A program made the position numbers and the translations under genes. A DNA stretch of 64,000 nucleotides, taken from assembly GCA_046296715.1 (NCBI GenBank), contig JBKBIN010000002.1:14011-78010 (forward strand), in the 5' to 3' direction. Of the stretch, positions 7,321-46,574 are shown one piece after another. The notes beneath the pieces are model-generated. The model searched no databases. It worked only from the letters and a program-made list of their open reading frames with translations, and was not told where the DNA came from. The stretch is from Candidatus Ratteibacteria bacterium. Its GTDB lineage: Bacteria > Ratteibacteria > UBA8468 > B48-G9 > JAFGKM01. The number at the start of each line of letters is the position of its first letter. The stretch's first letter is position 1.

Positions 7321-7331
7321 AGGAGAAAAAA

Positions 7332-14680: not shown

Positions 14681-14682
14681 TT

Positions 14683-18615: not shown

Positions 18616-19984
18616 TCGTTAAAAATAAATTTCTTGCCTTCACTATTGTTTCTTCATATTCTTTCTCTGGTATACTATCCCAGACAATTCCACCACCAAC
18701 AGGATAATAGATTTTATTGTTTTTTATAAGTAGAGTTCTTATAAGTATGTTCAACTGTAAATTATGATTAAAGCCAAAATATCCTAAAGCCCCTGTATAA
18801 AAATTTCTCTTTGTTGGCTCAAGTTCTTCAATAATCTCCATTGCTCTTTTTTTTGGCGCACCTGTGATTGAACCACCTGGAAATGTTGCTTTAATTATAT
18901 CTTTCAAATTCACTCCTTTTTTCAATTTTCCTTCAATTGTTGATGTTGTCTGGTAAACTGTTTTATATTTTTCAAGATTTACAAGTTTTTTCACTCTTAC
19001 AGTTCCATATTCACAGATTTTGCCAAGGTCATTTCTTTCAAGGTCAACTATCATAATAAGTTCTGCTCTATCCTTTTCACTTCTAAGAAGGTCTTTTTTA
19101 GTTTTTTCATTTAAAACTGAATTATTTTCTGTCTTTCTTGTTCCTTTCATTGGTTTTGTGATAATACTTCTATCTTGTTTTTTAAGAAATAGTTCAGGAG
19201 AGTTTGAAACTAAAATAAAATCCCCAAAATTAAAATAAGCAGAATAAGGAGCAGGATTTATTTTCTCTAATCTTAAAAATAGATTAATTGGTTCAAAAAT
19301 CCCTTTTATTTCAAACCTGTGTGAAAAATTTATCTGATACACATCTCCTTCTTTTATATAATCCCTAATTTTTTTTATTGCAGAAATATAATATGAATAG
19401 CTCATATTTGAATTGAAACTTTCAATAGAAAATTTAGGTTTTGTAATTTTTAAAGAATGGGATTTATAAATAAGTTGCTTGCAAAACTTTTTTATTTCAT
19501 TAAATTTTCTATTAAAAAACTTGTCATTTTCAAAATCATAGGAAATTAAAAAAGAGTTTTTCTTTATAGTATCAAACAAAAAAATTGTATCATAAAAACA
19601 AATAAAAATATCTGGTAATTTCAAGTCATCCTTCGCAAAATCTGGAAGTTCTTCAATCTGCCATCCTAAATCATAGGCAAGATATCCAAAACCACCAGGG
19701 AGAAAAAAGTTATTTGAAGGCAGGTTAAATTTATCAAAAATTCCTTGTAATTGTTCAATAGGACAACCTTGAAATTTTTTAACTTCATTTTTTCTTATAA
19801 TCTCAATTTCCTTTTTTTTACTTTTAAAAATCAAAAATGGATCAAAACCAACAATTGTATATTTTTCTTTTTCGCTCCAGTTAACATTGATTAAAAAACT
19901 GTAAGGTAAATTATGTATTTTAGATAAAAGATTTTTTGGATTTGAATAAGGAAATTTTTCAAAAAAAAGATTAGCCATTTTCAA
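18575..19984 (-). CDS. pabB: Aminodeoxychorismate synthase component I (chorismate-binding enzyme)
   Basis: PMKGTRKT, IMIVDLERNDLGKICEYGTVRV, TGAPKKRAMEIIEELE and YTGALGYF are chorismate-binding family motifs. Paired with the pabC-like gene. Confidence 0.75.
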   Translation of the reverse strand: MKMANLFFEKFPYSNPKNLLSKIHNLPYSFLINVNWSEKEKYTIVGFDPFLIFKSKKKEIEIIRKNEVKKFQGCPIEQLQGIFDKFNLPSNNFFLPGGFGYLAYDLGWQIEELPDFAKDDLKLPDIFICFYDTIFLFDTIKKNSFLISYDFENDKFFNRKFNEIKKFCKQLIYKSHSLKITKPKFSIESFNSNMSYSYYISAIKKIRDYIKEGDVYQINFSHRFEIKGIFEPINLFLRLEKINPAPYSAYFNFGDFILVSNSPELFLKKQDRSIITKPMKGTRKTENNSVLNEKTKKDLLRSEKDRAELIMIVDLERNDLGKICEYGTVRVKKLVNLEKYKTVYQTTSTIEGKLKKGVNLKDIIKATFPGGSITGAPKKRAMEIIEELEPTKRNFYTGALGYFGFNHNLQLNILIRTLLIKNNKIYYPVGGGIVWDSIPEKEYEETIVKARNLFLTIGIDENEIRNIIV

Positions 19985-20411
19985 TTTTTTTTATTTTATT
20001 CACTCTTCTTAAATGTCTTCCTTTTATAAAAGGATTTGATATGAATTCTTTTGCAATTTCTAATGCAAGTTCCTTACCTATCAATCTTCCTCCAAGTGTT
20101 AAAACATTAGCATCATTATGCTGTCTTGCTAAAACTGCATCATATATTGTACAGCATCTTGCTGCTCTTATACCTTTAAATTTATTCGCAACTATATCCA
20201 TACCTATTCCTGTTCCACATATTAAAATACCAAATTCAATCTCTTTATTTAAGATACCCTTTACAACTTTTTCAGCATAATCGGGATAATCAACAACTTT
20301 TTTTATTTCTGGCCCATAATCAATTACATCATATCCTTCTTTTTTCAAACTATCTTTTAAATACTCCTTCAATTCAAACCCTGCATGGTCAGAACCAATC
20401 CCTATTTTCAT
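19971..20411 (-). CDS. rpiB: Ribose-5-phosphate isomerase B
   Basis: MKIGIGSDHAGFELKEYL...CGTGIGMDIVANKFKGIRAA. Confidence 0.85.
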   Translation of the reverse strand: MKIGIGSDHAGFELKEYLKDSLKKEGYDVIDYGPEIKKVVDYPDYAEKVVKGILNKEIEFGILICGTGIGMDIVANKFKGIRAARCCTIYDAVLARQHNDANVLTLGGRLIGKELALEIAKEFISNPFIKGRHLRRVNKIKKIENG

Positions 20412-20595
20412 TTTTTGCTCCTAATCTTATATTATAAAACTTTTCTAAAAATAAATAAAAACTTCCCTATATTTCAAACATTTCTAAATTGACGATTTGA
20501 AAACTCTTGTCTACCAACATTTTCCACCTTTCACCTCGTAGGTGTAAGGAGGCAGGTTTGACAGAAAAGAAGGAATTGATATCATTTATTATAAA

Positions 20596-22305
20596 ATGAA
20601 ACCAAGAGAAGAATTCCCGAGACCTGATTTTAAAAGAAATGAATGGATAAATTTAAATGGGTTGTGGGATTTTGAAATAGATACATCAAATTCAGGATTA
20701 GAAAGAAAATTTTATTTATCGGAGAAAAAATTTAAAGAAAAAATACTTGTTCCATTTCCTCCTGAAAGTAAACTGTCAGGAATTGGAAATAAAGATTTTA
20801 TGGTTTCTGTATGGTACAAAAGAAAAATTGAAATACCTGAAAAATGGAAAGATAAAAGAATATTTTTAAATTTTGGTGCAGTTGATTTTTTAACAAATGT
20901 CTGGATAAATGGAGAAAAACTTGGGACCCATATTGGTGGTTATACTCCATTTACATTTGAAATAACTGATTTTTTAAAAAGAGAAAATGAAATTGTAGTA
21001 AATGCCTATGATGACAATAGAACTTACTTACAACCATGCGGAAAACAGTCAGATAAATATAATTCATATGGATGCCGTTATACAAGAGTAACTGGAATTT
21101 GGCAAACAGTTTATCTCTATGCAACAGGTAAAAATTACATAAAAAATTTTAAACTTTATCCAAATTATGATACAGGGCAAGTTCTGTTTTTAATAAATAT
21201 AGAAGGAGAAGGGAAATTAGAAGTTGAAATATTTAAAGAAACTGAAAAAATAGATAAAAAGACTGGTTATGGAAGTGGAACTGTTTTTATTTCAACAAAA
21301 ATTAAAAACTTTATTCCTTGGGATATAGAAAATCCATTCCTTTATAATTTTAAGATCTCTCTATTCTCAAAAAATCAAAAAGAAGATGAAGTTGAATCAT
21401 ATTTTGGTTTTAGGAAATTGGAAATTAAAGGGAAAAAAATTTTATTAAATGGAAAAGTTTTATTTATGAGAATGGTTCTTGACCAGGGGTATTATCCTGA
21501 TGGAATTTATACTGCACCAGACAAACAAGATATAAAAAATGATATAAAGATAGCAAAAGATATGGGATTTAATGGAGCAAGATTACATCAAAAGGTCTTT
21601 GAACCATTATTTTTATACTGGGCTGATAAACTTGGTTATCTTGTCTGGAGTGAATATCCAAACTGGGGAATTAAAAATGGAATAAGTGATAAAAGTTTTG
21701 GAGTTTTAAGTAAAGAATGGATAGATGTTATAGAAAGAGATTTCAATCATCCTTCAATAATTGGCTGGTGTCCTTTAAATGAAACTTCTCCAAGTCAGAA
21801 TAATGAACTTGTAAGAGCCCTTTATTTAATTACAAAAAATTTAGATAAAACAAGACCAGTGATAGATACAAGTGGATATGTTCATGTTGAGACAGATATT
21901 TATGATTGCCATAATTATAAACAGGACCCTCAACAATTTAAAAAAGATTTTGAATTATTTGAGAAAGAAGATAAAATTTGGCAAAATTTCCCTCAATATG
22001 ATGCTCCATACAAAGGACAGCCATACTGGATAAGTGAATATGGTGGAATATGGTGGGATATAGAAGGAAGAGAAAATGGATGGGGATATGGAGAAAGACC
22101 AAAAACAGAAAAAGAATTTATTGAAAGATATAAAAATTTAACAGAAATCCTTTTAAATCATCCGAAAATATGTGGTTTTTGTTATACGCAACTTTATGAT
22201 ATAGAACAGGAAGTCAATGGTCTTTACACATATTTAAGAAAACCAAAATTTAAACCAGAAATAATAAGAAAAATAAATTCAAAAAAAGCAAAAATTGAAA
22301 AATGA
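20596..22305 (+). CDS. Glycoside hydrolase family 2 protein (beta-galactosidase/beta-mannosidase-like)
   Basis: [15 protein letters not shown], and the GH2 sugar-binding domain pattern [37 protein letters not shown]-barrel region [13 protein letters not shown]. Confidence 0.65.
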
Positions 22306-22721
22306 AGTCCTATACTGAATATTTATGGTTTTGCACAGAAAAAAAAGTTGAATTTATAAATATTACTGAAAAAGTTGAAGAGATTGTTAAAAAGAGCAAA
22401 GTTAAAGAAGGGATATGTCTTGTAAATGCTATGCATATAACAGCAAGTGTTTTTATAAATGATGATGAAAAAGGACTACATTCTGATTTTATTGAATTTC
22501 TTGAAAAACTTGCTCCACATCAGCCAATTTCAAAATATAAACATAATCTAACAGGAGAAACAAATGCAGATGCACATCTAAAAAGAACAATTATGGGAAG
22601 AGAAGTAGTTGTTGCAATTACAAATGGAAAACTTGATTTAGGACCTTGGGAACAGATCTTTTATGGTGAATTTGATGGTCAGAGAAAGAAAAGAGTCCTT
22701 ATAAAAATAATAGGGGAATAA
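22302..22721 (+). CDS. yjbQ: YjbQ/UPF0047 family protein (secondary thiamine-phosphate synthase-like)
   Basis: 139 aa. The pattern ...[12 protein letters not shown]...[15 protein letters not shown]...[14 protein letters not shown] is typical of the YjbQ family. ATGA overlap with GH2. Confidence 0.75.
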
Positions 22722-22802
22722 AAATATAAAAAATTTTCTCAAATCTTTTTTAAAACTTTTGTTTGACAATTTTATAGTATAGGGTAAAATTTATTATAAT
22801 CA

Positions 22803-23729
22803 ATGAAAAAAATTGTTGATACATTAAGGGTAGCAATAACAGATAAATGTAATTTTAATTGTGTTTACTGTTCAAGAAAATTTAATAAAGTTGATAGAAA
22901 AGAAGTTTTAAGTTACGAAGAGATATTTGAGATTGTAAGAATTTTGAGTCAAATTGGTGTTGAAAAAATAAAGATTACTGGCGGAGAACCACTTATTAGA
23001 AAAAATTTATCTTTCCTTATTAAAAAAATCTCAGAGATAAAGCAAATTAAGGATATTTCTTTAACTACAAATGGTTTTTATCTATCTGAGAAGATTGACG
23101 AACTTATAAATTCAGGTCTTAAAAGAATAAATATCAGTTTAGACACACTTGACAAAAATAAATTCAAATTTATTACAGGTTTTGATTATTTTGATAGAGT
23201 TATAGATGGAATTAAAAAGGCAAAGGATAAATTTTCAAATGTAAAATTAAATGTTGTATTGATGAAGATTAATTTTGAAGAGATATTTGATTTTGTTGAA
23301 TTTTCAAAAGAAAATGGTTTAATTTTAAGATTTATTGAACTTATGCCAGTTGATAACAATTTAAATTTCTGGAAGGAAAATTTTGTTCCTTATATAAATG
23401 CTATTGAAAAAATAAAATCTAAAACTGAAATATTCTTTTTATTCCAGGTTAGTAATACAAAATATTATTTAATAGTCAGAGATAACCTAAAAATCGGATT
23501 TATAACTTCAATGACTGAACCATTTTGTTCAGATTGTAAAAAAATAAGAATAGATGCTCTTGGAAATTTCTTTTTATGTCTTTATGGGAAGCCAGTATTA
23601 AACTTTAAAAAAGTTCTATATGAACTTGATAAGGAAGAGATTAAAAAAATTTTGATTGAAAAAATAAATTCAAAGTCATTGTCAAGGACTTATTCAAAAT
23701 TTCCAGTTATGAATTGTATTGGAGGATAA
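22803..23729 (+). CDS. moaA: GTP 3',8-cyclase MoaA (radical SAM)
   Basis: LRVAITDKCNFNCVYCS, KITGGEPL. First gene of the Moco/FDH operon. TTGACA and TATAAT boxes upstream. Confidence 0.85.
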   Translation: MKKIVDTLRVAITDKCNFNCVYCSRKFNKVDRKEVLSYEEIFEIVRILSQIGVEKIKITGGEPLIRKNLSFLIKKISEIKQIKDISLTTNGFYLSEKIDELINSGLKRINISLDTLDKNKFKFITGFDYFDRVIDGIKKAKDKFSNVKLNVVLMKINFEEIFDFVEFSKENGLILRFIELMPVDNNLNFWKENFVPYINAIEKIKSKTEIFFLFQVSNTKYYLIVRDNLKIGFITSMTEPFCSDCKKIRIDALGNFFLCLYGKPVLNFKKVLYELDKEEIKKILIEKINSKSLSRTYSKFPVMNCIGG

Positions 23730-24476
23730 ATGATTGTGAAAAAGGAAATTTTAATGTATAAAAATGGAGAGATTCACAAAATTGTTGATGAAATTATTGA
23801 AGAAAAATATTTAAGAATTTTCATAAATAATAAAGAACTGGTGATTTTAGGAATTTTACCTGAAAAAATAGAGTATTTTGTTTATGGCTTTCTTTTCACA
23901 AATGGGATTATTAAAAATATTTCAGAGATAAAAAGTTTGAAAATAACTGAAAATTTATTATGTTTTGTAGAAATAGAAAATTATGATGAATTTACATTAG
24001 GCCTTAAAAATTTAAATTCTGGCTGTGGAAGTGAATATATTTCTTTCAAAAAAGAAGAAAAAATAGAAAGTAGAATTAAAATCCAATCTGAAAAAATTTT
24101 ACAATTAAAGAACATCTTTGAAAAAATGTCAGAAATTTATAAAAAAACAGGTAGTGTTCATTCATGTGGACTTTCTGATCATGAAAATATAATAATTTTT
24201 GCTGAGGATATTTCAAGGCATAATGCTTTTGATAAAGTTATTGGTGAAACTTTGGCTAAGAATTTAGGATTTGAAGATAAAATTCTTTTTTCCTCTGGAA
24301 GGATTACAACAGATATTATTACAAAATCTATAAAAGTAAAAATTCCAATCATTGTTTCAATCTCAGCTCCAACATATTATGCTTTAAAAATAGCTGAATT
24401 CTATAATATCACAGTTATTGGATTTGCAAGAGGAAAAAGATTTAATATTTATACTCACAACTGGAGAATTATATGA
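23730..24476 (+). CDS. fdhD: Formate dehydrogenase accessory sulfurtransferase FdhD
   Basis: GSVHSCGLSDHENIIIFAEDISRHNAFDKV carries the FdhD catalytic Cys-loop and the RHNA motif. Confidence 0.8.
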   Translation: MIVKKEILMYKNGEIHKIVDEIIEEKYLRIFINNKELVILGILPEKIEYFVYGFLFTNGIIKNISEIKSLKITENLLCFVEIENYDEFTLGLKNLNSGCGSEYISFKKEEKIESRIKIQSEKILQLKNIFEKMSEIYKKTGSVHSCGLSDHENIIIFAEDISRHNAFDKVIGETLAKNLGFEDKILFSSGRITTDIITKSIKVKIPIIVSISAPTYYALKIAEFYNITVIGFARGKRFNIYTHNWRII

Positions 24477-24874
24477 TTGATATAGAAAAAAAGAAAATCA
24501 CAAGAAGAAAAGCAATAGCAGAAGGAACGATTATTCTTGATAAAAAAATTATTGAAGATATAAAAAATCAAAAAATTCCAAAAGGAGATGTTTTAAATAT
24601 TTCAAAGGCAGCTGCTCTTTTAGCAATTAAACAGACACCGCTTTTAATCCCATTTTGTCACCCAGTTAAAATAACAAAAGGAGATATAAAATTTGAAATT
24701 TTTGATGATAGAATTAAAGTTATATGTGAAGTTGAAGGAATTGATAGAACTGGTTTTGAAATAGAAGCACTTGTTGGAGTTTGCATATGCCTTCTTACAA
24801 TCTATGATATGTGTAAAATCTATAAAAAAGAAATGGAACTGGAAGGAATAAAAATAGTTAAAAAAGTAAAATGA
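24473..24874 (+). CDS. moaC: Cyclic pyranopterin monophosphate synthase MoaC
   Basis: 133 aa. KGDVLNISKAAALLAIKQTPLLIPFCHPVKIT... shows MoaC family conservation. Confidence 0.8.
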   Translation: MIDIEKKKITRRKAIAEGTIILDKKIIEDIKNQKIPKGDVLNISKAAALLAIKQTPLLIPFCHPVKITKGDIKFEIFDDRIKVICEVEGIDRTGFEIEALVGVCICLLTIYDMCKIYKKEMELEGIKIVKKVK

Positions 24875-25788
24875 AAGGGATTGTTTATTCAGTAAATATT
24901 GGAGAGAAGAAAGGAGAAATTAAAAAGAAAGTTGAATTTATTGAACTTATTACAAATTATGGAGTTAAAGGTGATTGTCATGCAGAATATGGAACAACAA
25001 GACAAGTAAGTTTATTATCATGGGAGAGAATGAATGAAGAGTTTTTTTGTTTAAAAAAAGAGGGCGACTTAAAACCAGGAATTTTTGCAGAAAATATAAC
25101 AACTCTTAAAATTGATTTGAGAAAACTTAAAGTTGGAGATAAACTGAAAATAAACGATACCTTAATAGAAATATCTCAAATTGGAAAAAACTGTCATAAA
25201 TACTGTGAAATATATAAAAAAGTTGGTAAATGTATTATGCCAAAAGAAGGAATATTTGGGAAAGTAATTAAAGGTGGGATTATAAAAGAAAAAGATATTA
25301 TTGAAGTTTTACCAAAGATTGATGTTGCTATTTTGACAATAAGTGATAGTTGTTTTGAAGGGAAAAGAAAGGATGAAAGTGGAAATTTCTTAAAGGATGT
25401 CTGTGAAGAAAATGATTGGAATGTATTAAAATATGAAATAATTCCTGATGAAAAGGAGGTAATAAAAGAAAAACTGAATCAGTTTTCAAATATATGTGAT
25501 TTAATATTAACTACTGGAGGGACAGGAATTACAAAAAGAGATCAAACGCCTGAAGCAACAAAAGAAGTAATAGAAAAAGAGATTCCAGGAGTTTCTGAGA
25601 TTTTAAGAATTAAAACATATGAAAAATCTAAATTTTCTGTTATTTCAAGAGGCATTTGCGGTATAAAAGGAAATACATTAATAATTAATTTTCCTGGGAG
25701 TTTAAATGGAGTTAAAGATTATTTTGAAGTTGCTAAAGATATTATAGTACACTTAATTGAAATGATAAGAGAGTTCCCACATGATTGA
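24871..25788 (+). CDS. Fusion protein: N-terminal MOSC domain + C-terminal MogA/MoaB molybdopterin adenylyltransferase domain
   Basis: N-terminal GVKGDCHA...RQVSLLSWE...GIFAENITTL...IGKNCHKYC is MOSC-like. C-terminal DVAILTISDSCFEGKRKDESGNFL...LILTTGGTGITKRDQTPEA has the MogA/MoaB GGTG motif. Confidence 0.7.
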   Translation: MKGIVYSVNIGEKKGEIKKKVEFIELITNYGVKGDCHAEYGTTRQVSLLSWERMNEEFFCLKKEGDLKPGIFAENITTLKIDLRKLKVGDKLKINDTLIEISQIGKNCHKYCEIYKKVGKCIMPKEGIFGKVIKGGIIKEKDIIEVLPKIDVAILTISDSCFEGKRKDESGNFLKDVCEENDWNVLKYEIIPDEKEVIKEKLNQFSNICDLILTTGGTGITKRDQTPEATKEVIEKEIPGVSEILRIKTYEKSKFSVISRGICGIKGNTLIINFPGSLNGVKDYFEVAKDIIVHLIEMIREFPHD

Positions 25789-26227
25789 AATTAAAGAGAT
25801 TATTGAAAAAATAAAAATTAAAAAATTGTCAAACATTGAAATATTACAGTTAGTTCAAGAAAAATTCGGATATGTTCCAATTGAAATATTGAATGAAATA
25901 TGTAAACAAATTGAAATACCGAAAAGTAAAATTTTTGGAGTTTTGACTTTTTATTCTCAATTTTCAACTGAAGAAAGAGGTAAATATTTAATCACAGTTT
26001 GTGATGGGACTGCTTGCCATATAAAAGGTGGTGATAAAATTATTGATATGTTAAAAAAAGATTTTAATCTTGAAGATGGAAAAACAACACAAGATAAAAA
26101 ATTTACATTACAGATTGTCAGATGTCTTGGAAGTTGTTTTCGTGCTCCTGTTTGTATGATAAATAAAAGTTATTATGGGAATATGGATGAGAAAAAAATC
26201 AAAAAAATCTTAAAAGAATTAAGATGA
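25781..26227 (+). CDS. NuoE/HoxE-like [2Fe-2S] thioredoxin-like subunit (FDH gamma / HylC-like)
   Basis: CDGTACHIKGG...RCLGSCFRAPVCMIN is the four-Cys 2Fe-2S motif of NuoE-like proteins. Confidence 0.75.
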   Translation: MIEIKEIIEKIKIKKLSNIEILQLVQEKFGYVPIEILNEICKQIEIPKSKIFGVLTFYSQFSTEERGKYLITVCDGTACHIKGGDKIIDMLKKDFNLEDGKTTQDKKFTLQIVRCLGSCFRAPVCMINKSYYGNMDEKKIKKILKELR

Positions 26228-28026
26228 AATTTAAAAATATAAACGATTTTAAAAATTATTCAGAGAGTTTAAAAGAGAGTGTTGACCAAAGTGTAAAAAT
26301 AAAAATTTGTATAACTGGTTGCAGAGTTGTAGGTGCGCTTGAAATATTTGATAAATTCAAAGAAAAAACTTTTAACTTGAAAAATGTAAAAGTTATACCA
26401 ACTGGATGTCAAAAATTTTGCTCAGGGGGGCCTGTTGTTAAAGTAGATTTTAATTCAAATTCTGTTTTATATGAGAAAGTTTCATTATTAGATGTTGATA
26501 AAATTTTAAAATCAGTAGAGAAAAAAGAAATTATTAAATCTCTTCTCATTAAAGATGTCAATTTTCTAAAAAATCAAACATTTAAAGTTTTAAAACTATG
26601 CGGAGAGATTGATCCAATTGACATTGATGATTATATAAGACATGGAGGATTTTATTCATTTATAAAGGTTATTGAAGAATATTCTCCTGAAAGGGTAATT
26701 GAAGAATTAAAAAAATCAAAATTAAGAGGAAGAGGTGGTGCTGGATTTCCAACATATTTAAAATGGGATTTAATCAAAAAACAGCAAGAAGAAATAAAAT
26801 TTTTAATATGCAATGGAGATGAAGGTGATCCAGGTGCTTTTATGGATAGGACTTTACTTGAAGGAGTCCCTTTTCAGGTTATTGAAGGAATGCTTATTGG
26901 TGGTTATACAGTAGGTGCAAAAATTGGATATTTTTATATAAGGTCTGAATATCCAATTGCAATAGAACATATTGAAAAAGCAATAAGTAAATGTTATGAA
27001 TATGGTCTTCTTGGGAAAAATATTTTAAATACTTCTTTTTCTTTTGATATTGAGATTAAAAAAGGTGCTGGAGCTTTTGTTTGTGGAGAAGAAACAGCAC
27101 TTATATCATCAATTGAAGGCAAAAGAGGTATGCCAAGACCAAGGCCTCCTTTTCCAGTTGAAAAAGGCTTATTTAATAAACCGACATGTATAAATAATGT
27201 TGAAACATTTGCCAATATTCCTTTGATCGTAAGTGAAGGGGGTGAGAATTTTTCTTCAATTGGGACTGAAAAAAGTGGTGGAACAAAGATATTTTCGCTT
27301 GCTGGAAAAATTAAAAACACAGGACTTGTTGAAGTACCACTCGGCACACCTTTATGGAAAATTATATATGAGATTGGTGGTGGGCCTTTGAAAAATAGAA
27401 AAATAAAAGGAGTTCAAACAGGAGGACCTTCAGGTGGATGTATACCTGTTGAGTATTTTAATACTCCTGTTGATTATGAAACATTTGCATCACTTGGTTC
27501 AATTATGGGTTCAGGAGGTATGATTGTTATTGATGATAAAGTTTGTGTTGTTGAATTTGCAAGATATTTTTTAAGTTTTGCTCAGCAAGAATCCTGTGGA
27601 AAATGTGTTCCTTGTAGGATTGGGACAAAAAGGATGCTTGAAATTATTGAAAAAATTACAAATGGAAATGGAACTATAGAGGATTTAGATAAACTTAAAA
27701 TACTTGGAGATTACATTAAAGATACAAGTTTATGCGGATTAGGACAAACAGCACCAAATCCAGTTTTGACAACAATTAAATATTTTGAAAATGAATATAT
27801 TGAGCATATAAAAGACAAAAAGTGCAAAGCAGGGGTTTGTAAGAATCTGTTCGTATATATTATCAATTTAGAAAAATGTGTTGGATGTGGAATATGTTTC
27901 AAAAATTGTTCTTACGGAGCAATTGAAGGAGAAAAAAATAAACCACATAAAATTAAAACTGAAAGATGTATAAAATGTGGCATTTGTTTTAATGTATGTA
28001 AATTTGGTGCAGTTGAAATAAATTAA
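26224..28026 (+). CDS. NuoF-like NAD(P)H-binding FMN/Fe-S subunit with an N-terminal thioredoxin-like domain and a C-terminal 2x[4Fe-4S] ferredoxin domain (FDH beta / HylB-HydB-like)
   Basis: GRGGAGFPTYLKWD (NADH-binding). ICNGDEGDPGAF (FMN). ESCGKCVPCRIG (4Fe-4S). C-terminal CVGCGICFKNC and CIKCGICFNVC. Confidence 0.8.
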   Translation: MKFKNINDFKNYSESLKESVDQSVKIKICITGCRVVGALEIFDKFKEKTFNLKNVKVIPTGCQKFCSGGPVVKVDFNSNSVLYEKVSLLDVDKILKSVEKKEIIKSLLIKDVNFLKNQTFKVLKLCGEIDPIDIDDYIRHGGFYSFIKVIEEYSPERVIEELKKSKLRGRGGAGFPTYLKWDLIKKQQEEIKFLICNGDEGDPGAFMDRTLLEGVPFQVIEGMLIGGYTVGAKIGYFYIRSEYPIAIEHIEKAISKCYEYGLLGKNILNTSFSFDIEIKKGAGAFVCGEETALISSIEGKRGMPRPRPPFPVEKGLFNKPTCINNVETFANIPLIVSEGGENFSSIGTEKSGGTKIFSLAGKIKNTGLVEVPLGTPLWKIIYEIGGGPLKNRKIKGVQTGGPSGGCIPVEYFNTPVDYETFASLGSIMGSGGMIVIDDKVCVVEFARYFLSFAQQESCGKCVPCRIGTKRMLEIIEKITNGNGTIEDLDKLKILGDYIKDTSLCGLGQTAPNPVLTTIKYFENEYIEHIKDKKCKAGVCKNLFVYIINLEKCVGCGICFKNCSYGAIEGEKNKPHKIKTERCIKCGICFNVCKFGAVEIN

Positions 28027-28028
28027 AA

Positions 28029-30725
28029 ATGAACTCACAAAAAATAAAAATTTATATAAATGGAAAAGAGATAGTAACACAACAAGGTAAATTTATCTTA
28101 GAAGTTGCGTTAGAAAATAATATAGAAATCCCTCATTTGTGTTATGACAAAAGAGTATCTCCAAATGGTGCCTGCAGATTGTGTATTGTAGAAGTTGAAG
28201 GTGAAAAAAGACCCGTTGCTTCTTGTTGTTATCCTGTTTATGATGGAATGAATGTCTTTATAAACACAGAAAAAATAATAAATTATAGAAAATTAACTTT
28301 ACAACTTCTTATTTCAAACCATCCTTATGATTGTATGACATGTGAGAAAAGTGGAGATTGTTTACTTGAAAAATATGCTTATGAATATGGAATAAAGGAA
28401 GTAAATTATCAAGGAGAAAAACAGAAAATTAGAGAAAAAGACGGTAAACCATTTATAATTAGAGATTATGAAAAATGTATATTATGCGGAAGATGTGTAA
28501 AGGTATGTGAAGAGATAGTTGGAGCAAATGCAATTGATTATAAAAACAGAGGTTTTTTGACTGAAATATCAGCAGGATTTGATCAAATATTGAAAGATAC
28601 AGAATGTTTATTTTGTGGAAATTGTATTGAAGTATGTCCTGTTGGTGCATTAAGAGAGATGTATTCTGAAAGAAAAGGAAGGGTTTGGGAATTTAAAAAA
28701 GTAAATACAATATGTCCTTATTGTGGTGTTGGCTGTGGAATAGTTGTTTATGTTAAAGATAATCAAATTATTAAAATAAAAGGAGATGAACAAAGCCCTG
28801 TAAATAATGGATTTTTATGCATTAAAGGGAAATTTGGTTTTGAATATGTTGATTCAGAAAACCGTATAAAAAAACCATTGATAAAAGAAAATGGAAAATT
28901 TAAGGAAGTATCTTGGGAAAATGCAATTAATTTTGTTTATGAAAAATTGAAATACTATAAAGAAAAATATGGACCTTATTCAATTGCTGGTCTTTCTTCT
29001 GCAAAATGTACAAATGAAGAAAATTATCTATTTCAGAAGTTTTTCAGAGTTGTTCTAAAATCTAATAATATTGACCATTGTGCTCGCCTTTGTCATTCTT
29101 CAACAGTAATTGGTCTTTCTAAAACTCTTGGTTCTGCTGCAATGAGCAATTCTCTTGAAGAAATTGAAAAATATTCAGATTGTATAATTATAACTGGAAC
29201 AAATTTAACAGAAACACAGCCTGTCACATCTTATAGGATTAGAAAGGCAAAAGAAAAAGGTGCAAAAGTTATAGTTATAGATCCAAGAGAAATTGAAATA
29301 TCTAAAATTGCAGATATATATATTCAACCAAGATATGGAACAGATGTTATTGTTTTTAATGGAATTGCAAAGATTATAATTGATGAGAAACTTTATAATG
29401 AAAAGTTTGTTGAAGAACGGACAGAAAATTTTCAAGAATATAAAAACTTTATAGAAAAATTTGATTTATCACTTGTTGAAAAAATTGCAAATGTAAAGAT
29501 TGAAGATTTAAGAAAAGTTGCATATCTTTATTCAAAATCAAAATCAAGTGTAATTCTTTGGGCAATGGGTATAACCCAGCATATAACAGGTACAGAAAAT
29601 GTATTTTGTCTATCAAATTTAGCACTTTTAACTGGCCAAATTGGGAAAAAAGGTGCAGGACTTGCTCCTTTAAGAGGGCAAAACAATGTCCAAGGTGCAT
29701 GTGATATGGGATGTCTTCCTGAATTTTATCCAGGATATAAAAGTGTCTCTGATAAAAATACAATTATTGAATTTGAAAATATTTGGAATGAAAAAAATCT
29801 ACCTGATAAAATTGGATTTACTGTTGTTGAAATGTTTGAGAATATATTTAAAGGGAACATTAAAGCAATGTATATTATAGGTGAAATGCCTTTGGTTTCT
29901 GATCCAGATATATTACATATAAAAGAAGGGCTTGAAAAACTTGAATTTCTTGTTGTTCAGGATATTTTATTTAATGATTTATGCGAATATGCGGATGTAA
30001 TTCTTCCTGCTTGTTCTTCTTTTGAAAAAGAAGGAACTTTTACAAATACTGAAAGGAGAGTTCAAAAAATATCTAAATCTATTGAAAATTATTCAGAGGC
30101 AAAACCTGATTGGTGGATTGTAAATGAAATCGCAAAAAAATTTGGATATGATTGGGGTTATAAAGATGTTTGGGATATTTTAAGAGAAATAAATTCAGTA
30201 ATTGAAAGTTATAAAGGGATTACACCTGAAAGAGTCAAAAAGGGAAAAAAAATACAGTGGCCTTGTTTTTCAGAAAATGACAATGGAACAGAAACATTAC
30301 ATATTGAAAAATTTAAAAGAGGAAAAGGACTTTTTAAAATTGTTGAATATAAAGAGCCATTTGAATTACCTGATGATAAGTATCCATATTTATTAACAAC
30401 AGGAAGAATTTTACAAGAATATCATTCAAGAACTATGACAGGAAAGACAAAAGGAATAAAAGATATTGTTGGAGATGAGTTTTTTGTCATGAATCCATTA
30501 GATGCTGTAAATGAGAATATTAAAGAAGGAGATAAAGTTAGAATTGAATCAAAAAGAGGAGTTGTAGAGTTGAAAGCAAAATTAAGTAATAAAATTCAGA
30601 AAGGTGTTATATTTATTCCATTTCATTTTTATGCAAACATATTAACCCATCATGAAATTGATCCATATTCAAAAATTCCTGAATTTAAAATATGTGCTGT
30701 TAGAATTTCTAAAATTAAAAAATGA
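28029..30725 (+). CDS. fdhA: Formate dehydrogenase catalytic (alpha) subunit, molybdopterin-dependent, cysteine-type (no selenocysteine)
   Basis: N-terminal NuoG-like 2Fe-2S/4Fe-4S region. CPYCGVGCGIVVYVKD...GFLCIKGKFG. Active-site stretch IDHCARLCHSSTVIGL aligns to E. coli FdhF VDCCARVUHGPSVAGL, with a Cys codon TGT at 29091..29093 at the Sec position. Confidence 0.85.
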   Translation: MNSQKIKIYINGKEIVTQQGKFILEVALENNIEIPHLCYDKRVSPNGACRLCIVEVEGEKRPVASCCYPVYDGMNVFINTEKIINYRKLTLQLLISNHPYDCMTCEKSGDCLLEKYAYEYGIKEVNYQGEKQKIREKDGKPFIIRDYEKCILCGRCVKVCEEIVGANAIDYKNRGFLTEISAGFDQILKDTECLFCGNCIEVCPVGALREMYSERKGRVWEFKKVNTICPYCGVGCGIVVYVKDNQIIKIKGDEQSPVNNGFLCIKGKFGFEYVDSENRIKKPLIKENGKFKEVSWENAINFVYEKLKYYKEKYGPYSIAGLSSAKCTNEENYLFQKFFRVVLKSNNIDHCARLCHSSTVIGLSKTLGSAAMSNSLEEIEKYSDCIIITGTNLTETQPVTSYRIRKAKEKGAKVIVIDPREIEISKIADIYIQPRYGTDVIVFNGIAKIIIDEKLYNEKFVEERTENFQEYKNFIEKFDLSLVEKIANVKIEDLRKVAYLYSKSKSSVILWAMGITQHITGTENVFCLSNLALLTGQIGKKGAGLAPLRGQNNVQGACDMGCLPEFYPGYKSVSDKNTIIEFENIWNEKNLPDKIGFTVVEMFENIFKGNIKAMYIIGEMPLVSDPDILHIKEGLEKLEFLVVQDILFNDLCEYADVILPACSSFEKEGTFTNTERRVQKISKSIENYSEAKPDWWIVNEIAKKFGYDWGYKDVWDILREINSVIESYKGITPERVKKGKKIQWPCFSENDNGTETLHIEKFKRGKGLFKIVEYKEPFELPDDKYPYLLTTGRILQEYHSRTMTGKTKGIKDIVGDEFFVMNPLDAVNENIKEGDKVRIESKRGVVELKAKLSNKIQKGVIFIPFHFYANILTHHEIDPYSKIPEFKICAVRISKIKK

Positions 30726-31348
30726 ATGGACTAATTCTTGCAAAAGGAGAAAAAAGTGAAAGATTGAATTTTGACAAAGCATTTATAAAGTTTGAAAATA
30801 AAAAAGTTATAGAGATTATTATTGAAAAGATAAGTCCTTTATTTGAAGAGATTTATATTGTTACTCTTTCTCCTTATAAGTTTAGGATTTATGAGAATCA
30901 AAAGATAAAAATTGTAAAAGATGCTCTTGGTTGTGGTCCTCTTGGCGGAATTTATACTGGTTTAAATATTTCAAAAAGTATTTACAATTTTGTTTTTGCC
31001 TGCGATTTACCTTTTTTAGATATTGATTTTATTAAATATATGATGAAGATTGAAAAAAATTATGATATACTTGTCCCAGTTTATAAAAATAAATTCCAAC
31101 TTTTACACTCAATCTATAGTAGGAAAATTATAAAAACAATTGAAGATATGCTGAATAAAAAAAAATATACTGTTAGAGAAATTTTGAACAGAGTAAATGT
31201 TAAGTATATCCCTGAAGTCGAAATAAAAAATTTTACCAAAAATTTTAATGTCTTTTTCAATCTTAATACAGAAGATGACCTTAAGAAATTTTTGAAATTA
31301 GAAAGGAGTTTTTATGGAAGAATTAATCTCTGTAAAAGAAGCAATTGA
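30722..31348 (+). CDS. mobA: Molybdenum cofactor guanylyltransferase MobA
   Basis: MNGLILAKGEKSERL... is MobA-like nucleotidyltransferase. Positioned directly after fdhA. Confidence 0.6.
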   Translation: MNGLILAKGEKSERLNFDKAFIKFENKKVIEIIIEKISPLFEEIYIVTLSPYKFRIYENQKIKIVKDALGCGPLGGIYTGLNISKSIYNFVFACDLPFLDIDFIKYMMKIEKNYDILVPVYKNKFQLLHSIYSRKIIKTIEDMLNKKKYTVREILNRVNVKYIPEVEIKNFTKNFNVFFNLNTEDDLKKFLKLERSFYGRINLCKRSN

Positions 31349-32528
31349 TATTGTATTAAAAGAAACGGAAATTTTAGGAGCTGAAAAGGTTAAAATAATA
31401 AACTCAATTGGAAGAATTATTGCAGAAGATATTATATCTCCTTTTGATATGCCTCCGTTTAGAAGAAGTGCTATGGATGGATATGCTATTAAATATGACG
31501 ATTTAAATTTTACAGATAGATTTGAGATAATTGATGAGATTAAGTCAGGAGAAATAAAAGATATTAAATATAAAAAAGGTTCATGTGTTTTAATAATGAC
31601 TGGTGCAAAAATACCAGATATTTTTGATACAGTTGTTAAATTTGAAGATACAGAGGAAGTTTTTAATAATCAAAAAAGGGAAATAAGAATTTTAAAAAAG
31701 ATAAAGAAATTTGAAAACATTGCAGAAAAAGGAGAAGATTTTAAAAAAGGAGAAATAATTTTAAATAAAGGAAGTTTAATTGATAGCGCTTTTCTTGCTA
31801 TTCTTGCCTACTGTGGGAAAAGTGAAATTTTAGTTTATAAAAAACCAAAAGTTGGAATAATAGCAACTGGTGACGAAATAAAAAAAATTGGTGAAAAATT
31901 GAAAGAAGGAGAAATATATGATTGTAATTCTTACTCTATTTATGGACTTGTTTTAAAATATGGAGGACAACCTGAAATTCTTGGTATTGCAAAGGATAAC
32001 AAAAAAGAATTAAAAAATTTAATTGAAGAAGGAATTAAAAAGAAAAAAGATATTTTAATTTTATCAGGTGGAGTTAGTGAAGGAAAATATGATTTTGTTG
32101 TTAACGTCTTTAAAGAAATTGGAATTGATATGAAATTTTGGAAAGTTGCAGTGAAACCAGGTAAACCAACATTTTTTGGTAAAAAAGGAAGTTGTCTAAT
32201 CTTTGGACTTCCAGGATATCCAGTTTCTGCATATATTAATTTTGAGAATCTAATAAGACCTGCAATTTTAAAAATGCAAGGAGCAAATACTTTTGAAAGA
32301 TTTAAAGTTTTAGGAATTCTAACAGAAGATATAGAGAATAAAGGAGATAGAGATGAATTTTTAAGGGTTATATTGAAAATTGAAAATGACGAAAATATTG
32401 TAATTCCATATAAAAAACAGAAATCAGGTGTCTTTACATCAATAACTTCAACAAATGCTCTTTTATATTTGAAAAAAGGGGAAAAAATAAAAAAGGGAGA
32501 AAAAGTAATCGTTGAAATTTATAGATAA
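31314..32528 (+). CDS. moeA: Molybdopterin molybdenumtransferase MoeA
   Basis: MPPFRRSAMDGYA, and GGVSEGKYDFV of the MoeA/gephyrin E-domain. Confidence 0.8.
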   Translation: MEELISVKEAIDIVLKETEILGAEKVKIINSIGRIIAEDIISPFDMPPFRRSAMDGYAIKYDDLNFTDRFEIIDEIKSGEIKDIKYKKGSCVLIMTGAKIPDIFDTVVKFEDTEEVFNNQKREIRILKKIKKFENIAEKGEDFKKGEIILNKGSLIDSAFLAILAYCGKSEILVYKKPKVGIIATGDEIKKIGEKLKEGEIYDCNSYSIYGLVLKYGGQPEILGIAKDNKKELKNLIEEGIKKKKDILILSGGVSEGKYDFVVNVFKEIGIDMKFWKVAVKPGKPTFFGKKGSCLIFGLPGYPVSAYINFENLIRPAILKMQGANTFERFKVLGILTEDIENKGDRDEFLRVILKIENDENIVIPYKKQKSGVFTSITSTNALLYLKKGEKIKKGEKVIVEIYR

Positions 32529-32545: not shown

Positions 32546-34744
32546 ATGGAAAAGAAATATGAACTTGTTGTTTGCGGAGGAGGACTTGCAGGTGTATGTG
32601 CAGCCTTATCGGGTAAGAGATTAGGTCTATCTACCTGTATAATTCAGGATAGACCTGTTTTTGGTGGAAATGCAAGTTCTGAAATAAGAGTAAACATTGG
32701 AGGTGCTTGTGCTTTCAATGCATGGGCAAGAGAAACAGGAATTATTAACGAAATTTTTCTTGAAGAGAGAAAAAGGAATTATGAATATCATAGAACTACC
32801 TGGAATAATGGCATTCTTGATATTGTCTTATATGAGTTTTTGAAAAATGAGGAAGTTGCAATATATCTTAATACTTCAATTCGCAAGGCAATTATGAAAT
32901 CAAAAGAAGAGATAGAAGGTGTATATTGTGTTCAACTTGGAAATGAGAAAGAATTTATTATTTATGGCGATTATTTTATTGATGCAACTGGTGATGGAGT
33001 TGTTGGTTTTACATCTGGAGCAGAATTCAGAATTGGAAGAGAAAGTAAATATGAGTATGGAGAAGAACTTGCACCTGAAAAAGAAGATATGGGGATTATG
33101 GGAAATTCACTTTTATTTCATATTAGAGATGTTGGAAGACCTATTAAATTTGTTCCACCTACATGGGCAGTTAAATTTGAAAAGGAAGATATAACATTAA
33201 AAACAAGAGCACATAATTATCAACCAGGATACTGGTGGATTGAAGTTGGATGGCCTTTTGATACAATTTATGATAATGAAGAGATAAAAGAAAAACTACT
33301 TTCATATGTTTTTGGTGTTTGGGACCATATGAAGAATTCAGAAGACCATGGATTCAGTAATTATGTTATTGACTGGATTGGTATGGTCCCTGGAAAAAGA
33401 GAATCAAGAAGGTTTATAGGAGATTATATTTTAAATGAAAATGATATTAAAAAAAGGAAAAAATTTGAAGATGCAATTGCCTATGGTGGATGGTATATTG
33501 ATTTACATACTCCTGGTGGGATTTTAGCAAAAGACCAACCTCCTGAACCAACTCATCAAGTAGAAAGAGAAAAAAGAATAGAGGAACAGGATAGAAGATT
33601 TGTTTATATTTACCAGATACCTTATAGATGCATTTACTCAAAAAATATAAAGAATTTACTTTTTGCAGGAAGAAATATAAGTGTTAGCCATGTAGCACTT
33701 GGAACAACAAGATTGATGGGAACATGTGCAATAATAGGTCAGGCAGCAGGAACTGCTGTTTATCTATGCAAAAAATATAATTTTTCCCCAAGGGAGATTT
33801 ATGAAAAAGGATACTATAAAGAATTACAACAGATATTATTAAGAGAAGGTTGTTTTATACCTGATATAAAAAATGAAGACAAAAAAGATTTAATCTTAAA
33901 TTCAAAAATTTCTTCCTCCTCATCAAAACCTTTAAAATTTGAAAGATTTGATGGTGAAATTAAACTTGATATTCCAACCGGACAGAAAATCCCTCTTGAT
34001 GGAAAAATTGAAAAGATTAAATTTAAATGCAGAATAGAAAAAGAAACTTTTTTAAAATTTCATTTAAGAAGTTCTTATGATTTGTGGGATTTTAATTCCG
34101 AACAAGATATTCTATACAAAGAAATAAATCTTAAAAAGTCAGAACAAGAAATAATTATTGATATAAATTCTGAATTTAAGAAAGGAATATACTGGTTTTA
34201 TTTTGAAAAAAATGAAAATGTCTATTTAAAAACAACAACTGAAAACTTCCCTGGTTTATCTTTGATTACAAAACCTGGTAAAAAATGGAGATTTAATTGG
34301 TGTTCAAAAAGGATTAATTTATATTTTGAGATAGAACCAAATATTTATCCTTTTGGAGCTGAAAATATAATAAATGGTGTTTCAAGACCTGAAAAATGGA
34401 CAAATGTCTGGATTTCTGATAAAACTTTACCACAGTTTATTGAAATTGAGTTTGATAAGGAAAAAGAATTTAATTATATTCAATTTATTTTTGATTCAGA
34501 ACTTGATAAAGAATATACCCACATTGAACCATTTTATATTCCAAAAAGTATTCCGAGGGATTTCAATATTTATATTGAAGATAGAAACAAATGGAATAAA
34601 ATTTTAGAAATTCATGATAATACTTCTTACTTCTGCAAATATAAGTTTGAAACAGTAAAAAGTAAAAAAATCAGAATTGAATTTTTAAAAACAAATGGAA
34701 GTGAAAATATAATGGTTTATGAAGTAAGAATTTATAAATTTTAA
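32546..34744 (+). CDS. FAD-dependent oxidoreductase (FAD_oxidored family) with a C-terminal beta-sandwich extension
   Basis: YELVVCGGGLAGVCAALSGKRLGLSTCIIQDRPVFGGNASSE carries the dinucleotide-binding GxGxxG. A 280-aa C-terminal non-catalytic region (possible discoidin/CBM-like). Confidence 0.55.
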   Translation: MEKKYELVVCGGGLAGVCAALSGKRLGLSTCIIQDRPVFGGNASSEIRVNIGGACAFNAWARETGIINEIFLEERKRNYEYHRTTWNNGILDIVLYEFLKNEEVAIYLNTSIRKAIMKSKEEIEGVYCVQLGNEKEFIIYGDYFIDATGDGVVGFTSGAEFRIGRESKYEYGEELAPEKEDMGIMGNSLLFHIRDVGRPIKFVPPTWAVKFEKEDITLKTRAHNYQPGYWWIEVGWPFDTIYDNEEIKEKLLSYVFGVWDHMKNSEDHGFSNYVIDWIGMVPGKRESRRFIGDYILNENDIKKRKKFEDAIAYGGWYIDLHTPGGILAKDQPPEPTHQVEREKRIEEQDRRFVYIYQIPYRCIYSKNIKNLLFAGRNISVSHVALGTTRLMGTCAIIGQAAGTAVYLCKKYNFSPREIYEKGYYKELQQILLREGCFIPDIKNEDKKDLILNSKISSSSSKPLKFERFDGEIKLDIPTGQKIPLDGKIEKIKFKCRIEKETFLKFHLRSSYDLWDFNSEQDILYKEINLKKSEQEIIIDINSEFKKGIYWFYFEKNENVYLKTTTENFPGLSLITKPGKKWRFNWCSKRINLYFEIEPNIYPFGAENIINGVSRPEKWTNVWISDKTLPQFIEIEFDKEKEFNYIQFIFDSELDKEYTHIEPFYIPKSIPRDFNIYIEDRNKWNKILEIHDNTSYFCKYKFETVKSKKIRIEFLKTNGSENIMVYEVRIYKF

Positions 34745-34759
34745 AAAAGGAGGTTTGAA

Positions 34760-35527
34760 ATGGGAATAAAAGAACTTTTCAATCTTGAAGGAGAAAAAGC
34801 AATTGTAACAGGTGCATCTCAAGGGCTTGGAAGAGAAATGGCAATTGCTCTTGCTGAAGCAGGTGCTGATATTGCTGTTGTTGATATAAATCAAGAAAAA
34901 GGGGAAAAAGTTGTTGAAGAAATAAAAAAAATAGGAAAAGAAGGTTTTTTTGTAAAATGTGATGTCTCAAAAGAAGATGAAGTTGAAAATATGATAAATA
35001 AAGTTAAAGAAAATTTTGGAAAAATTGACATTCTTGTTAATAACGCAGGAATTGTAAGCAATTATCCAGCAGAAGAAATGGAATTAAAAGAATGGGATAG
35101 AATTTTAGATGTTGACCTTAGGGCTGTTTTTATTTGCTGTCAGAAAGCAGGAAAAGTTATGATAGAACAAAAAAAGGGAGTTATTGTTAATATTGCTTCA
35201 ATGTCAGGAATTATTGTAAATACTCCTCAGCCACAATCTCACTATAATACAGCTAAGGCAGGCGTAATTATGCTTACAAAATCACTTGCAGTTGAATGGG
35301 CAAAATATAATATAAGGGTTAATGCTATTGCTCCTGGTTATATGGGAACTGAAATGGTTCAAAAAGCATTTCCAAAATACGGAGAAAAATGGCTTTTTCT
35401 CATACCAATGGGAAGAATAGGCAATCCTGAAGAAATAAAAGGACCTATAGTATTTTTATGTTCAAAAGCATCAAGTTATATAACTGGAAGTGTTCTTGTA
35501 ATGGATGGTGGATATACTTGCTGGTAG
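34760..35527 (+). CDS. SDR-family oxidoreductase (gluconate 5-dehydrogenase / KduD-like)
   Basis: KAIVTGASQGLGREMA (TGxxxGxG). NNAG. YNTAKAGVIMLTK (YxxxK). SD AAAGGAGGT. Confidence 0.8.
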   Translation: MGIKELFNLEGEKAIVTGASQGLGREMAIALAEAGADIAVVDINQEKGEKVVEEIKKIGKEGFFVKCDVSKEDEVENMINKVKENFGKIDILVNNAGIVSNYPAEEMELKEWDRILDVDLRAVFICCQKAGKVMIEQKKGVIVNIASMSGIIVNTPQPQSHYNTAKAGVIMLTKSLAVEWAKYNIRVNAIAPGYMGTEMVQKAFPKYGEKWLFLIPMGRIGNPEEIKGPIVFLCSKASSYITGSVLVMDGGYTCW

Positions 35528-46573: not shown

Positions 46574-46574
46574 A

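Follow-up and report, generated by a model that had tools for sequence, protein, structure and literature searches.

Here we describe a compact cluster of nine genes at positions 22803-32528 of a 64-kb stretch of DNA (64,000 nucleotides; hereafter the window) from contig JBKBIN010000002.1 of a Candidatus Ratteibacteria bacterium (assembly GCA_046296715.1). Our analysis suggests that it encodes a cytoplasmic, three-subunit formate dehydrogenase (FDH) of the cysteine type, carrying a molybdenum or tungsten bis-pyranopterin guanine dinucleotide (bis-PGD) cofactor, which is electron-bifurcating and has its cofactor genes in the same single operon; to this reading as a whole we assign a probability of about 0.68. 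On the evidence of sequence, the enzyme is best labelled a Type 1 Fdh-Bfu, that is, a hybrid of an FdsA-like alpha subunit and a HydBC-like electron-transfer head. Type 1 Fdh-Bfu enzymes have already been predicted from genomes, for example that of Carboxydothermus hydrogenoformans (PMC9304861), and the enzyme of this operon adds a further member.

The electron-transfer head

Genes were identified by Pfam and NCBIfam profile searches, and relatedness was judged by bit-score contrasts against solved structures, by domain and ligand content and by published diagnostic residues. The beta subunit (BfuB, HydB-like and NuoF-like; 600 amino acids (aa); 26224-28026; Pfam families Complex1_51K, SLBB, NADH_4Fe-4S and Fer4) matches the B subunits of bifurcating enzymes with 700 bits for NfnB of Csac (Caldicellulosiruptor; 9bov_B), 685 for NiFe-HydB (7t2r), 669 for T. 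kivui HydB, 668 for Sporomusa StnB, 646 for A. woodii HydB and 640 for T. maritima HydB, and it aligns to HydB-type subunits, including those of T. maritima and A. woodii, over approximately its whole length. FdsB, in contrast, matches it with 353-395 bits and only in the core (approximately residues 50-525). The gamma subunit (BfuC, HydC-like and NuoE-like; 148 aa; 25781-26227; PF01257, 170 bits) gives 141-110 bits against HydC/NfnC of bifurcating enzymes and 58-72 bits against FdsG, and for both subunits the scores against FdsB/FdsG are roughly half of those against HydB/HydC.

The ligand content of the two subunits points in the same direction. In beta, the flavin mononucleotide (FMN) and NADH motifs, on whose retention the original prediction had made its proposal depend, are all intact: GRGGAGFPT (169), CNGDEGDPGAFMDR (196) and GAGAFVCGEETAL (281). 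The [4Fe-4S] cluster B1 would be held by ESCGKCVPC (456) and SLCGLG (502), and the [2Fe-2S] cluster C1 of gamma by C74, C79, C115 and C119. An N-terminal thioredoxin-like domain carries the B5 site in a CxxxC...CxxxC arrangement (C29/C33/C62/C66); Pfam does not call this domain, but HydB of A. woodii and of T. maritima align with residues 2-130 through their own N-terminal domains. The motif H528-x5-C534-x4-C539 is kept with 9bov_B and 7t2r_B and is a putative match to the Zn/B2 site, with C441 as a candidate for the fourth ligand; in known enzymes this site consists of three Cys and one His and holds Zn in most structures (PMC9304861). Two C-terminal [4Fe-4S] motifs, CVGCGICFKNC (552-562) and CIKCGICFNVC (582-592), correspond to B3 and B4; they lie within a Pfam Fer4 match at 545-599, in a region whose counterparts in the alignments are the C-terminal domains of 9bov_B and 7t2r_B. 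The architecture earlier claimed for beta, namely an N-terminal thioredoxin-like domain together with a C-terminal double [4Fe-4S] ferredoxin, is thus borne out by the ligands of both domains and by the full-length alignment to HydB.

Published work gives these sites their meaning. The Bfu family is defined by the extra cluster sites, which non-bifurcating homologues, including the Rhodobacter FDH, do not have (Schut et al. 2022, PMC9304861), and loss of the B3/B4 domain by deletion abolishes bifurcation in HydABC of T. kivui (Li et al., PMC11829005). Moreover, bifurcating beta subunits have been reported to stand apart from non-bifurcating ones by an Ala/Glu and a Met in the NADH region, by a Phe where the others have Tyr near the FMN, and by GGPSG in the SLBB region (Losey et al., PMC7311640). 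Our beta subunit is in the bifurcating state at these residues, with A205 and M207 in GAFMDR, GGPSG at 400-404, and Phe285 in GAGAFVCGEET, which corresponds by alignment offset to Tyr180 of Nqo1, the Phe/Tyr position here being set by the motif and not by the residue number of PMC7311640. We infer bifurcation from this combination, and the original suggestion that the complex is possibly bifurcating is strengthened by the beta and gamma scores, by the extra cluster sites, B2 among them as a putative one, and by the diagnostic residues, all of which are arguments from sequence.

The catalytic subunit

The alpha subunit, FdhA (898 aa; 28029-30725; Pfam domains and TIGR01591), is by profile and motif an FDH alpha subunit of the cysteine type. 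It scores 850.1 bits against TIGR01591 (Fdh-alpha), for which the cut-off is 666.25, and its best solved relatives are Rhodobacter FdsA and related NAD-dependent FDHs (643-650 bits, full length), with FDH1 of Methylorubrum at 633 bits. The predicted active site consists of Cys355, His356 and Arg549, and the surrounding motifs ARLCHSS and PLRGQNNVQG are matched, in the alignment with R. capsulatus FdsA, by 'arvchsp' and 'plrgqnnvqg'. Because the ligand Cys355 is encoded by TGT, FdhA is not a selenoprotein. The N-terminal 220 residues resemble FdsA in holding motifs for one [2Fe-2S], one His-ligated [4Fe-4S] and two more [4Fe-4S] clusters; a fifth motif, for a [4Fe-4S] cluster, stands at the start of the molybdopterin domain and is followed by the bis-PGD catalytic domain. 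A single ORF (open reading frame) thus holds the Pfam domains Fer2_4, NADH-G_4Fe-4S_3, Fer4_Nqo3, Molybdop_Fe4S4, Molybdopterin and Molydop_binding, which amounts to a BfuA Fe-S domain fused to the pterin domain. This fusion is the defining, self-sufficient layout of Type 1 enzymes (PMC9304861).

Comparison with known enzymes

The enzyme shares with Type 1 Fdh-Bfu its three subunits, the BfuA pterin domain fused to Fe-S sites A1-A5, the FMN, B1 and B3-B5 sites of BfuB together with a putative B2 site, and the [2Fe-2S] cluster of BfuC. It differs in its Omnitrophota-like host, whereas the published examples come mainly from Firmicutes, Proteobacteria and Chloroflexi (PMC9304861), and in that the enzyme genes are embedded among maturation genes for the molybdenum cofactor (Moco).

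The original prediction had called the complex HylABC/FdsGBA-type, a label that lumps two kinds of enzyme, to neither of which this one belongs. With FdsGBA(D) of R. capsulatus and Cupriavidus necator (6tga, 6vw7) it shares an alpha subunit that is homologous over its full length (643-650 bits), with five Fe-S motifs and the Cys-His/Arg site, a NuoE-like gamma subunit, and a gene for an FdhD/FdsC-type chaperone in the operon. However, beta adds an N-terminal four-Cys domain, a putative Zn/B2-type site, two C-terminal [4Fe-4S] clusters and bifurcating-state residues, and at the level of ORFs the tightly packed cluster leaves no extra unassigned frame for FdsD. We therefore rejected the FdsGBA type, in which beta would have only FMN and a single [4Fe-4S] cluster. 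The HylABC-FdhF2 and Hyt-Fdh enzymes likewise have a HydB/HydC-like head and formate as third substrate, but in them the pterin subunit is a protein of its own, with selenocysteine and tungsten in G. acidurici, and extra subunits are present; the enzyme described here instead joins the pterin domain and the BfuA Fe-S domain in a single chain, and its ligand is a Cys encoded by TGT. The HylABC-FdhF2 type was rejected on these grounds, the functions of HylA and FdhF2 being fused in one ORF with an active-site codon that does not specify selenocysteine. Finally, the [FeFe] hydrogenases HydABC (T. maritima 7p5h, T. kivui 7q4v, A. woodii 8a6t) and the NfnABC/StnABC enzymes (9bov, 8oh5) have beta and gamma subunits that are homologous over their full length and carry the same cofactor motifs, whereas the third substrate site here is a Mo/W-pterin site for formate, not an H-cluster or an NADPH/FAD site.

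Operon organization and cofactor maturation

All nine ORFs lie on the + strand, exactly at the previously given coordinates (22803-32528). The cluster had been counted as ten genes; the identities and coordinates stand, but the count reaches ten only if a fusion of MOSC and MogA is counted twice. Overlaps had been stated for the cluster throughout, but they occur at six of its eight junctions (4, 4, 8, 4, 4 and 35 nucleotides (nt)); at the other two, moaA and fdhD abut without a gap and nuoF and fdhA are separated by a 2-nt spacer. Within the 81-nt gap upstream of moaA, a promoter-like site on the + strand (TTGACA-16 nt-TAAAAT, 22763-22790) matches the sigma-70-like consensus at 11 of 12 positions; this is a consensus match only, and it likely marks the start of the operon. 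Because the junctions look translationally coupled and the promoter-like site precedes moaA, the best explanation appears to be that the nine genes form one transcription unit beginning at that site. Our terminator scan gave no convincing terminator-like hairpin after moeA to mark its 3' boundary. A Moco riboswitch would not fit into the 81-nt gap, and in the window neither that riboswitch nor any other RNA was detected with Rfam at the gathering threshold, nor any tRNA with ARAGORN. GC content is about 27% throughout the window, and since that of the cluster (0.268) equals that of the window (0.274), the cluster looks native and not recently imported.

Six of the ORFs that surround the enzyme genes cover most steps of cofactor maturation. 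The first, moaA (22803-23729; 308 aa), encodes a GTP 3',8-cyclase of the radical SAM superfamily with Pfam domains Radical_SAM and Mob_synth_C; it clears the equivalog cut-off of TIGR02666 narrowly (286.5 vs 284.05 bits). It is followed by fdhD (23730-24476; 248 aa), encoding the FDH accessory sulfurtransferase and bis-MGD (molybdopterin guanine dinucleotide) chaperone (PF02634, 220 bits; TIGR00129, 201 bits vs cut-off 140.9). FdhD aligns to the structures 2pw9 and 4pde and has one catalytic-loop Cys (SGCGSE, C99), as in 2pw9; the E. coli motif CGVCG has a second Cys, which is lacking here. The product of moaC (24473-24874; 133 aa), cyclic pyranopterin monophosphate (cPMP) synthase, matches PF01967 with 148 bits and is N-terminally short relative to typical MoaC, beginning at approximately position 12-17 of the NCBIfam MoaC profiles. 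The next ORF (24871-25788; 305 aa) encodes the fusion of a MOSC domain (approximately residues 4-147) with a molybdopterin adenylyltransferase of MogA/MoaB type (approximately 150-290), as found by Pfam MOSC and MoCF_biosynth and by NCBIfam molyb_syn (125 bits vs cut-off 85). Downstream of fdhA come mobA (30722-31348; 208 aa), for the Moco guanylyltransferase that makes the MGD dinucleotide (PF12804; NCBIfam MobA models are the best matches but stay below their cut-offs), and moeA (31314-32528; 404 aa), for the molybdopterin molybdo/tungsto-transferase, with Pfam MoeA_N, MoCF_biosynth and MoeA_C and a best NCBIfam match to MoeA at 347 bits, below the cut-off of 440.

The steps covered are therefore the formation of cPMP (MoaA, MoaC), adenylylation of molybdopterin (MPT) and metal insertion (the MogA/MoaB domain, MoeA), formation of MGD (MobA), and sulfuration and insertion (FdhD). 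MoaA and MoaC would make cPMP, MogA/MoaB and MoeA would adenylylate MPT and insert the metal, MobA would add the guanine dinucleotide, and FdhD, perhaps together with the MOSC domain, would sulfurate the cofactor and deliver it. The earlier claim that the operon encodes its own cofactor synthesis, sulfuration and MGD formation holds for these six products; it does not extend to moaD, moaE and moeB, to which we return below.

Gene order in relatives

In a scan of one genome per species, the closest relatives of FdhA were found in uncultured 'Candidatus Omnitrophota' and unclassified metagenome-assembled genomes (MAGs), at 57-79% identity. The whole order moaA-fdhD-moaC-MOSC-mogA-nuoE-nuoF-fdhA-mobA-moeA is kept in the relative L002 at 36-60% aa identity (FdhA 60%), with MOSC and mogA as two separate genes; as L002 is a more distant relative, the arrangement is old in the group. 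The order fdhA-mobA-moeA is common to L002 and a second relative, L004, and fdhA-mobA occurs in L003, whose contig ends there. Two further relatives retain a ferredoxin-type beta (L001, FdhA 79%; L019, 64%). The beta subunit of L002 is a 1014-aa NuoF-GltD fusion.

The neighbor genes in these relatives point to C1 metabolism. Directly upstream of the Moco-FDH cluster of L002 (20-3410) are genes for a NiFe hydrogenase large subunit, a maturation protease and metV-metF (methylene-tetrahydrofolate (THF) reductase). In L004 (12697-20952), fdhA-mobA-moeA-fhs is followed by a ModA-like binding protein that scores above the cut-off, a permease for which ModB is the best match, below the cut-off, and an ABC ATPase. 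This permease and the ATPase are separated by a RhuM/Fic-family gene and two small ORFs, and the nuoE/nuoF-like genes of L004 are 7 kb upstream on the opposite strand.

Head modules in close relatives

The closest comparison is offered by L017, a 31.6-kb contig of an Omnitrophota MAG that is syntenic with the window from an aminotransferase gene through MOSC-mogA. Nucleotide identity is 84.6% over window positions 17766-25731, collapses at approximately 25732-28286 and then returns at 83.9%. Between window 25732-28286 and L017 8592-10246 we detected no nucleotide similarity. This segment holds the last ~57 nt of MOSC-mogA, the nuoE-like and nuoF-like genes and the first ~86 codons of fdhA, which encode the N-terminal [2Fe-2S] domain. 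In the corresponding interval, L017 has no NuoE-like gene and only a bare NuoF of 400 aa (41% identical), whose residue states are non-bifurcating (T/K, Tyr and no GGPSG). Identity between the FdhA proteins rises along the subunit from 47% in residues 1-86 through 72% in 87-220 to 91% in 221-410, and the catalytic domain is 91% identical.

A second mosaic is seen in L005, an Omnitrophota contig (1-2814) on which a GltD-type (NADPH/FAD) C-terminus lies upstream of fdhA. Its FdhA is 72% identical overall, 96% in residues 87-220 and 63-69% beyond, in the catalytic domain; L005 appears to carry a NuoF-GltD fusion.

From these patterns of identity, the head and the FdhA domain on which it docks appear to have been exchanged as a unit among close relatives; if the swap is real, the capacity for bifurcation is traded as a recombination cassette. 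We regard this reading as evenly poised. The same pattern could reflect chimeric assembly of metagenome contigs, especially in the case of the 2.8-kb L005. Two further comparisons were dropped. A 56-aa ORF between MOSC-mogA and nuoF in L017 was considered as a remnant of NuoE, but the match (9/26 identities, pairwise E = 0.001) is too weak; and the bare NuoF of L017 is not equivalent to HydAB of S. aciditrophicus, in which HydB is a NuoE-NuoF fusion.

Neighboring genes in the window

Just upstream of the operon, at 20596-22721 (+ strand), are genes for a glycoside hydrolase family 2 (GH2) glycosidase and a UPF0047 (YjbQ-like) protein, which are 89% and 94% identical to their L017 counterparts, above the Moco genes (70-82%); the FDH operon is flanked by carbohydrate-related genes. 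After moeA, at 32546-35527 (+ strand), a 732-aa FAD-dependent oxidoreductase (PF12831) and a 255-aa short-chain dehydrogenase/reductase (SDR) follow with gaps of 17 and 15 nt, and these short gaps and the lack of a terminator-like site mean that the pair may be co-transcribed with moeA. Matches of the 732-aa protein to solved structures are limited to its N-terminal FAD-binding motif, and the pair is not kept beside the cluster in L002 or L004. Farther downstream, at 45809-49052 (+ strand), lies an energy-coupling factor (ECF)-type Ni/Co uptake cluster consisting of DUF4198, CbiM, a 181-aa protein with a weak bMG3 match, CbiQ and an ABC ATPase. This cluster does not encode a Mo/W transporter; the metal that it takes up could be destined for nickel or cobalt enzymes encoded elsewhere, such as a hydrogenase or corrinoid proteins. 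ORFs of 456, 369 and 432 aa at 5950-9736 (+ strand) and of 394 and 404 aa at 13526-15897 (- strand) have no Pfam family or only a weak match to DUF4139.

Discussion

We propose that FdhA would oxidize formate, or reduce CO2, at its pterin site, and that the electrons of formate would run via the five Fe-S clusters of FdhA to a head of the HydB/HydC type with the site [B1-FMN-C1]. By analogy with HydABC, NfnABC and StnABC, this head may use a [4Fe-4S]-FMN-[2Fe-2S] 'flavobicluster' together with the mobile C-terminal two-cluster domain of beta. Electron pairs would be split there, one branch leading to NAD(P)+ at the FMN and the other to ferredoxin (Fd) via C1 and the mobile B3/B4 domain, with the coupling 2 formate + NAD(P)+ + 2 Fd(ox) <-> 2 CO2 + NAD(P)H + 2 Fd(red). 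In Omnitrophota cells that live by fermentation or acetogenesis, the enzyme would probably work in the confurcating direction, in which glycolytic NADH and Fd(red) from pyruvate oxidation reduce CO2 to formate, and the formate might serve as an electron sink or feed the methyl branch of the Wood-Ljungdahl pathway. Glycolysis together with pyruvate:ferredoxin oxidoreductase (PFOR) yields one NADH for every two Fd(red), and the confurcating direction would fit because this ratio matches the coupling. Omnitrophota of the anaerobic classes are predicted to be acetogens or fermenters with PFOR and Rnf (PMC10066038).

Several points weigh against this proposal. No purified or solved Type 1 Fdh-Bfu was found in the literature and PDB searched, so that the case for bifurcation rests on homology of the head module; the FDHs biochemically shown to bifurcate are only HylABC-FdhF2 of Gottschalkia acidurici and Hyt-Fdh of Clostridium autoethanogenum (PMC9304861). 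The 64-kb window contains neither a ferredoxin gene nor a gene for an enzyme that produces Fd(red). In addition, moaD, moaE and moeB are absent among all window ORFs of at least 100 aa searched with Pfam, and no ORF of 55-120 aa ends in GG; the MPT-synthase genes (moaD, moaE) and moeB may lie elsewhere in the genome. The putative B2 site is placed by three of its four ligands, and of the three diagnostic positions of PMC7311640 one is set by its motif and not by its published number, the offsets placing 'position 367' near residue 340 and not at GAGA(F/Y). Lastly, the same clade of FdhA is paired with other head types in close relatives, which implies that the catalytic subunit does not dictate function and that the head is evolutionarily labile.

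Some of these points bear on whether the enzyme might be a plain NAD(H)-dependent, non-bifurcating FDH like FdsGBA, in which the extra clusters of beta are structural or vestigial. That the alpha subunit finds its closest match in FdsA of the Rhodobacter and Methylorubrum enzymes, which do not bifurcate, that no ferredoxin gene is nearby and that L017, a near relative, seems to get by with a bare NuoF would all be expected of such an enzyme. However, beta and gamma are much closer to the bifurcating enzymes, the B3-B5-type sites and a putative B2 site, which characterized non-bifurcating homologues do not have, are retained, and the mapped diagnostic residues are all in the bifurcating state. 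We consider this alternative unlikely.

A similarly low likelihood attaches to a variant with unchanged bifurcation chemistry in an enzyme that is specific for NADP(H), as is the HytB-containing enzyme of C. autoethanogenum, or depends on tungsten, which would change its metabolic role. Sequence alone fixes neither the nucleotide nor the metal, and in relatives of the same FdhA clade a GltD-type NADPH module is fused to beta (L002, 1014 aa). On the other side, the sole transporter near the FDH genes of a relative, that of L004, passes the ModA model (TIGR01256, 106 bits vs 62.5), and no tupABC or wtpABC was seen; both are weak and indirect arguments for molybdenum. Neither Pfam searches of all ORFs from 100 aa upward nor a scan for motifs in small ORFs revealed a tungstate/molybdate transporter, hydrogenase or ferredoxin in the window, in agreement with the original prediction that small ferredoxin, hydrogenase and tungsten-specific genes do not appear there.

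It is rather more doubtful that the three subunits are merely the core of a larger complex with partners encoded elsewhere, whether a hydrogenase module as in Hyt-Fdh of C. autoethanogenum or one of Hdr/MetVF type, so that formate would be linked to H2 or to methylene-THF reduction. The L002 cluster stands directly downstream of genes for a NiFe hydrogenase large subunit, a protease and metV-metF, and Type 2 and Type 3 Fdh-Bfu do carry extra subunits (PMC9304861). In the window, however, the operon has unrelated neighbors (GH2 and UPF0047 upstream, the FAD oxidoreductase and SDR downstream), and the fusion of the FdhA pterin domain to the BfuA Fe-S domain is already the self-sufficient layout of Type 1. 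That FdhA could be another bis-PGD enzyme, such as an assimilatory nitrate reductase, a clustering that the original prediction had named as its refutation, is very improbable: E-values are significant for the NasC and NapA models, which is normal among members of one superfamily, but NasC reaches only 564 bits against a cut-off of 1100, the NapA, NuoG and FdhN models also stay below their cut-offs while Fdh-alpha is passed (850.1 vs 666), the Cys-His and Arg motifs align with FdsA, and fdhD is present in the operon, so this identity was rejected.

A bifurcating FDH of this kind would be of interest in several respects. The two FDHs shown to bifurcate are multi-subunit, selenium-containing enzymes, whereas the three-subunit Type 1 is known from genome predictions alone. 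A compact, cysteine-type enzyme with most of its maturation genes in the same operon would thus be a convenient candidate for heterologous expression and for structural work on CO2/formate conversion by NADH and ferredoxin. With regard to Omnitrophota, some members have been reported without a recognizable FDH, and this step is missing from some predicted Wood-Ljungdahl pathways in KEGG-based surveys (PMC10066038); the operon would supply it.

The swap of head modules between close relatives would matter more than the enzyme itself. If it is real, the window, L017 and L005 would provide a ready-made comparative series on what makes a Bfu enzyme bifurcate. It would also suggest that one recombination event can alter the choice of redox partner and, with it, the energetics of formate metabolism.

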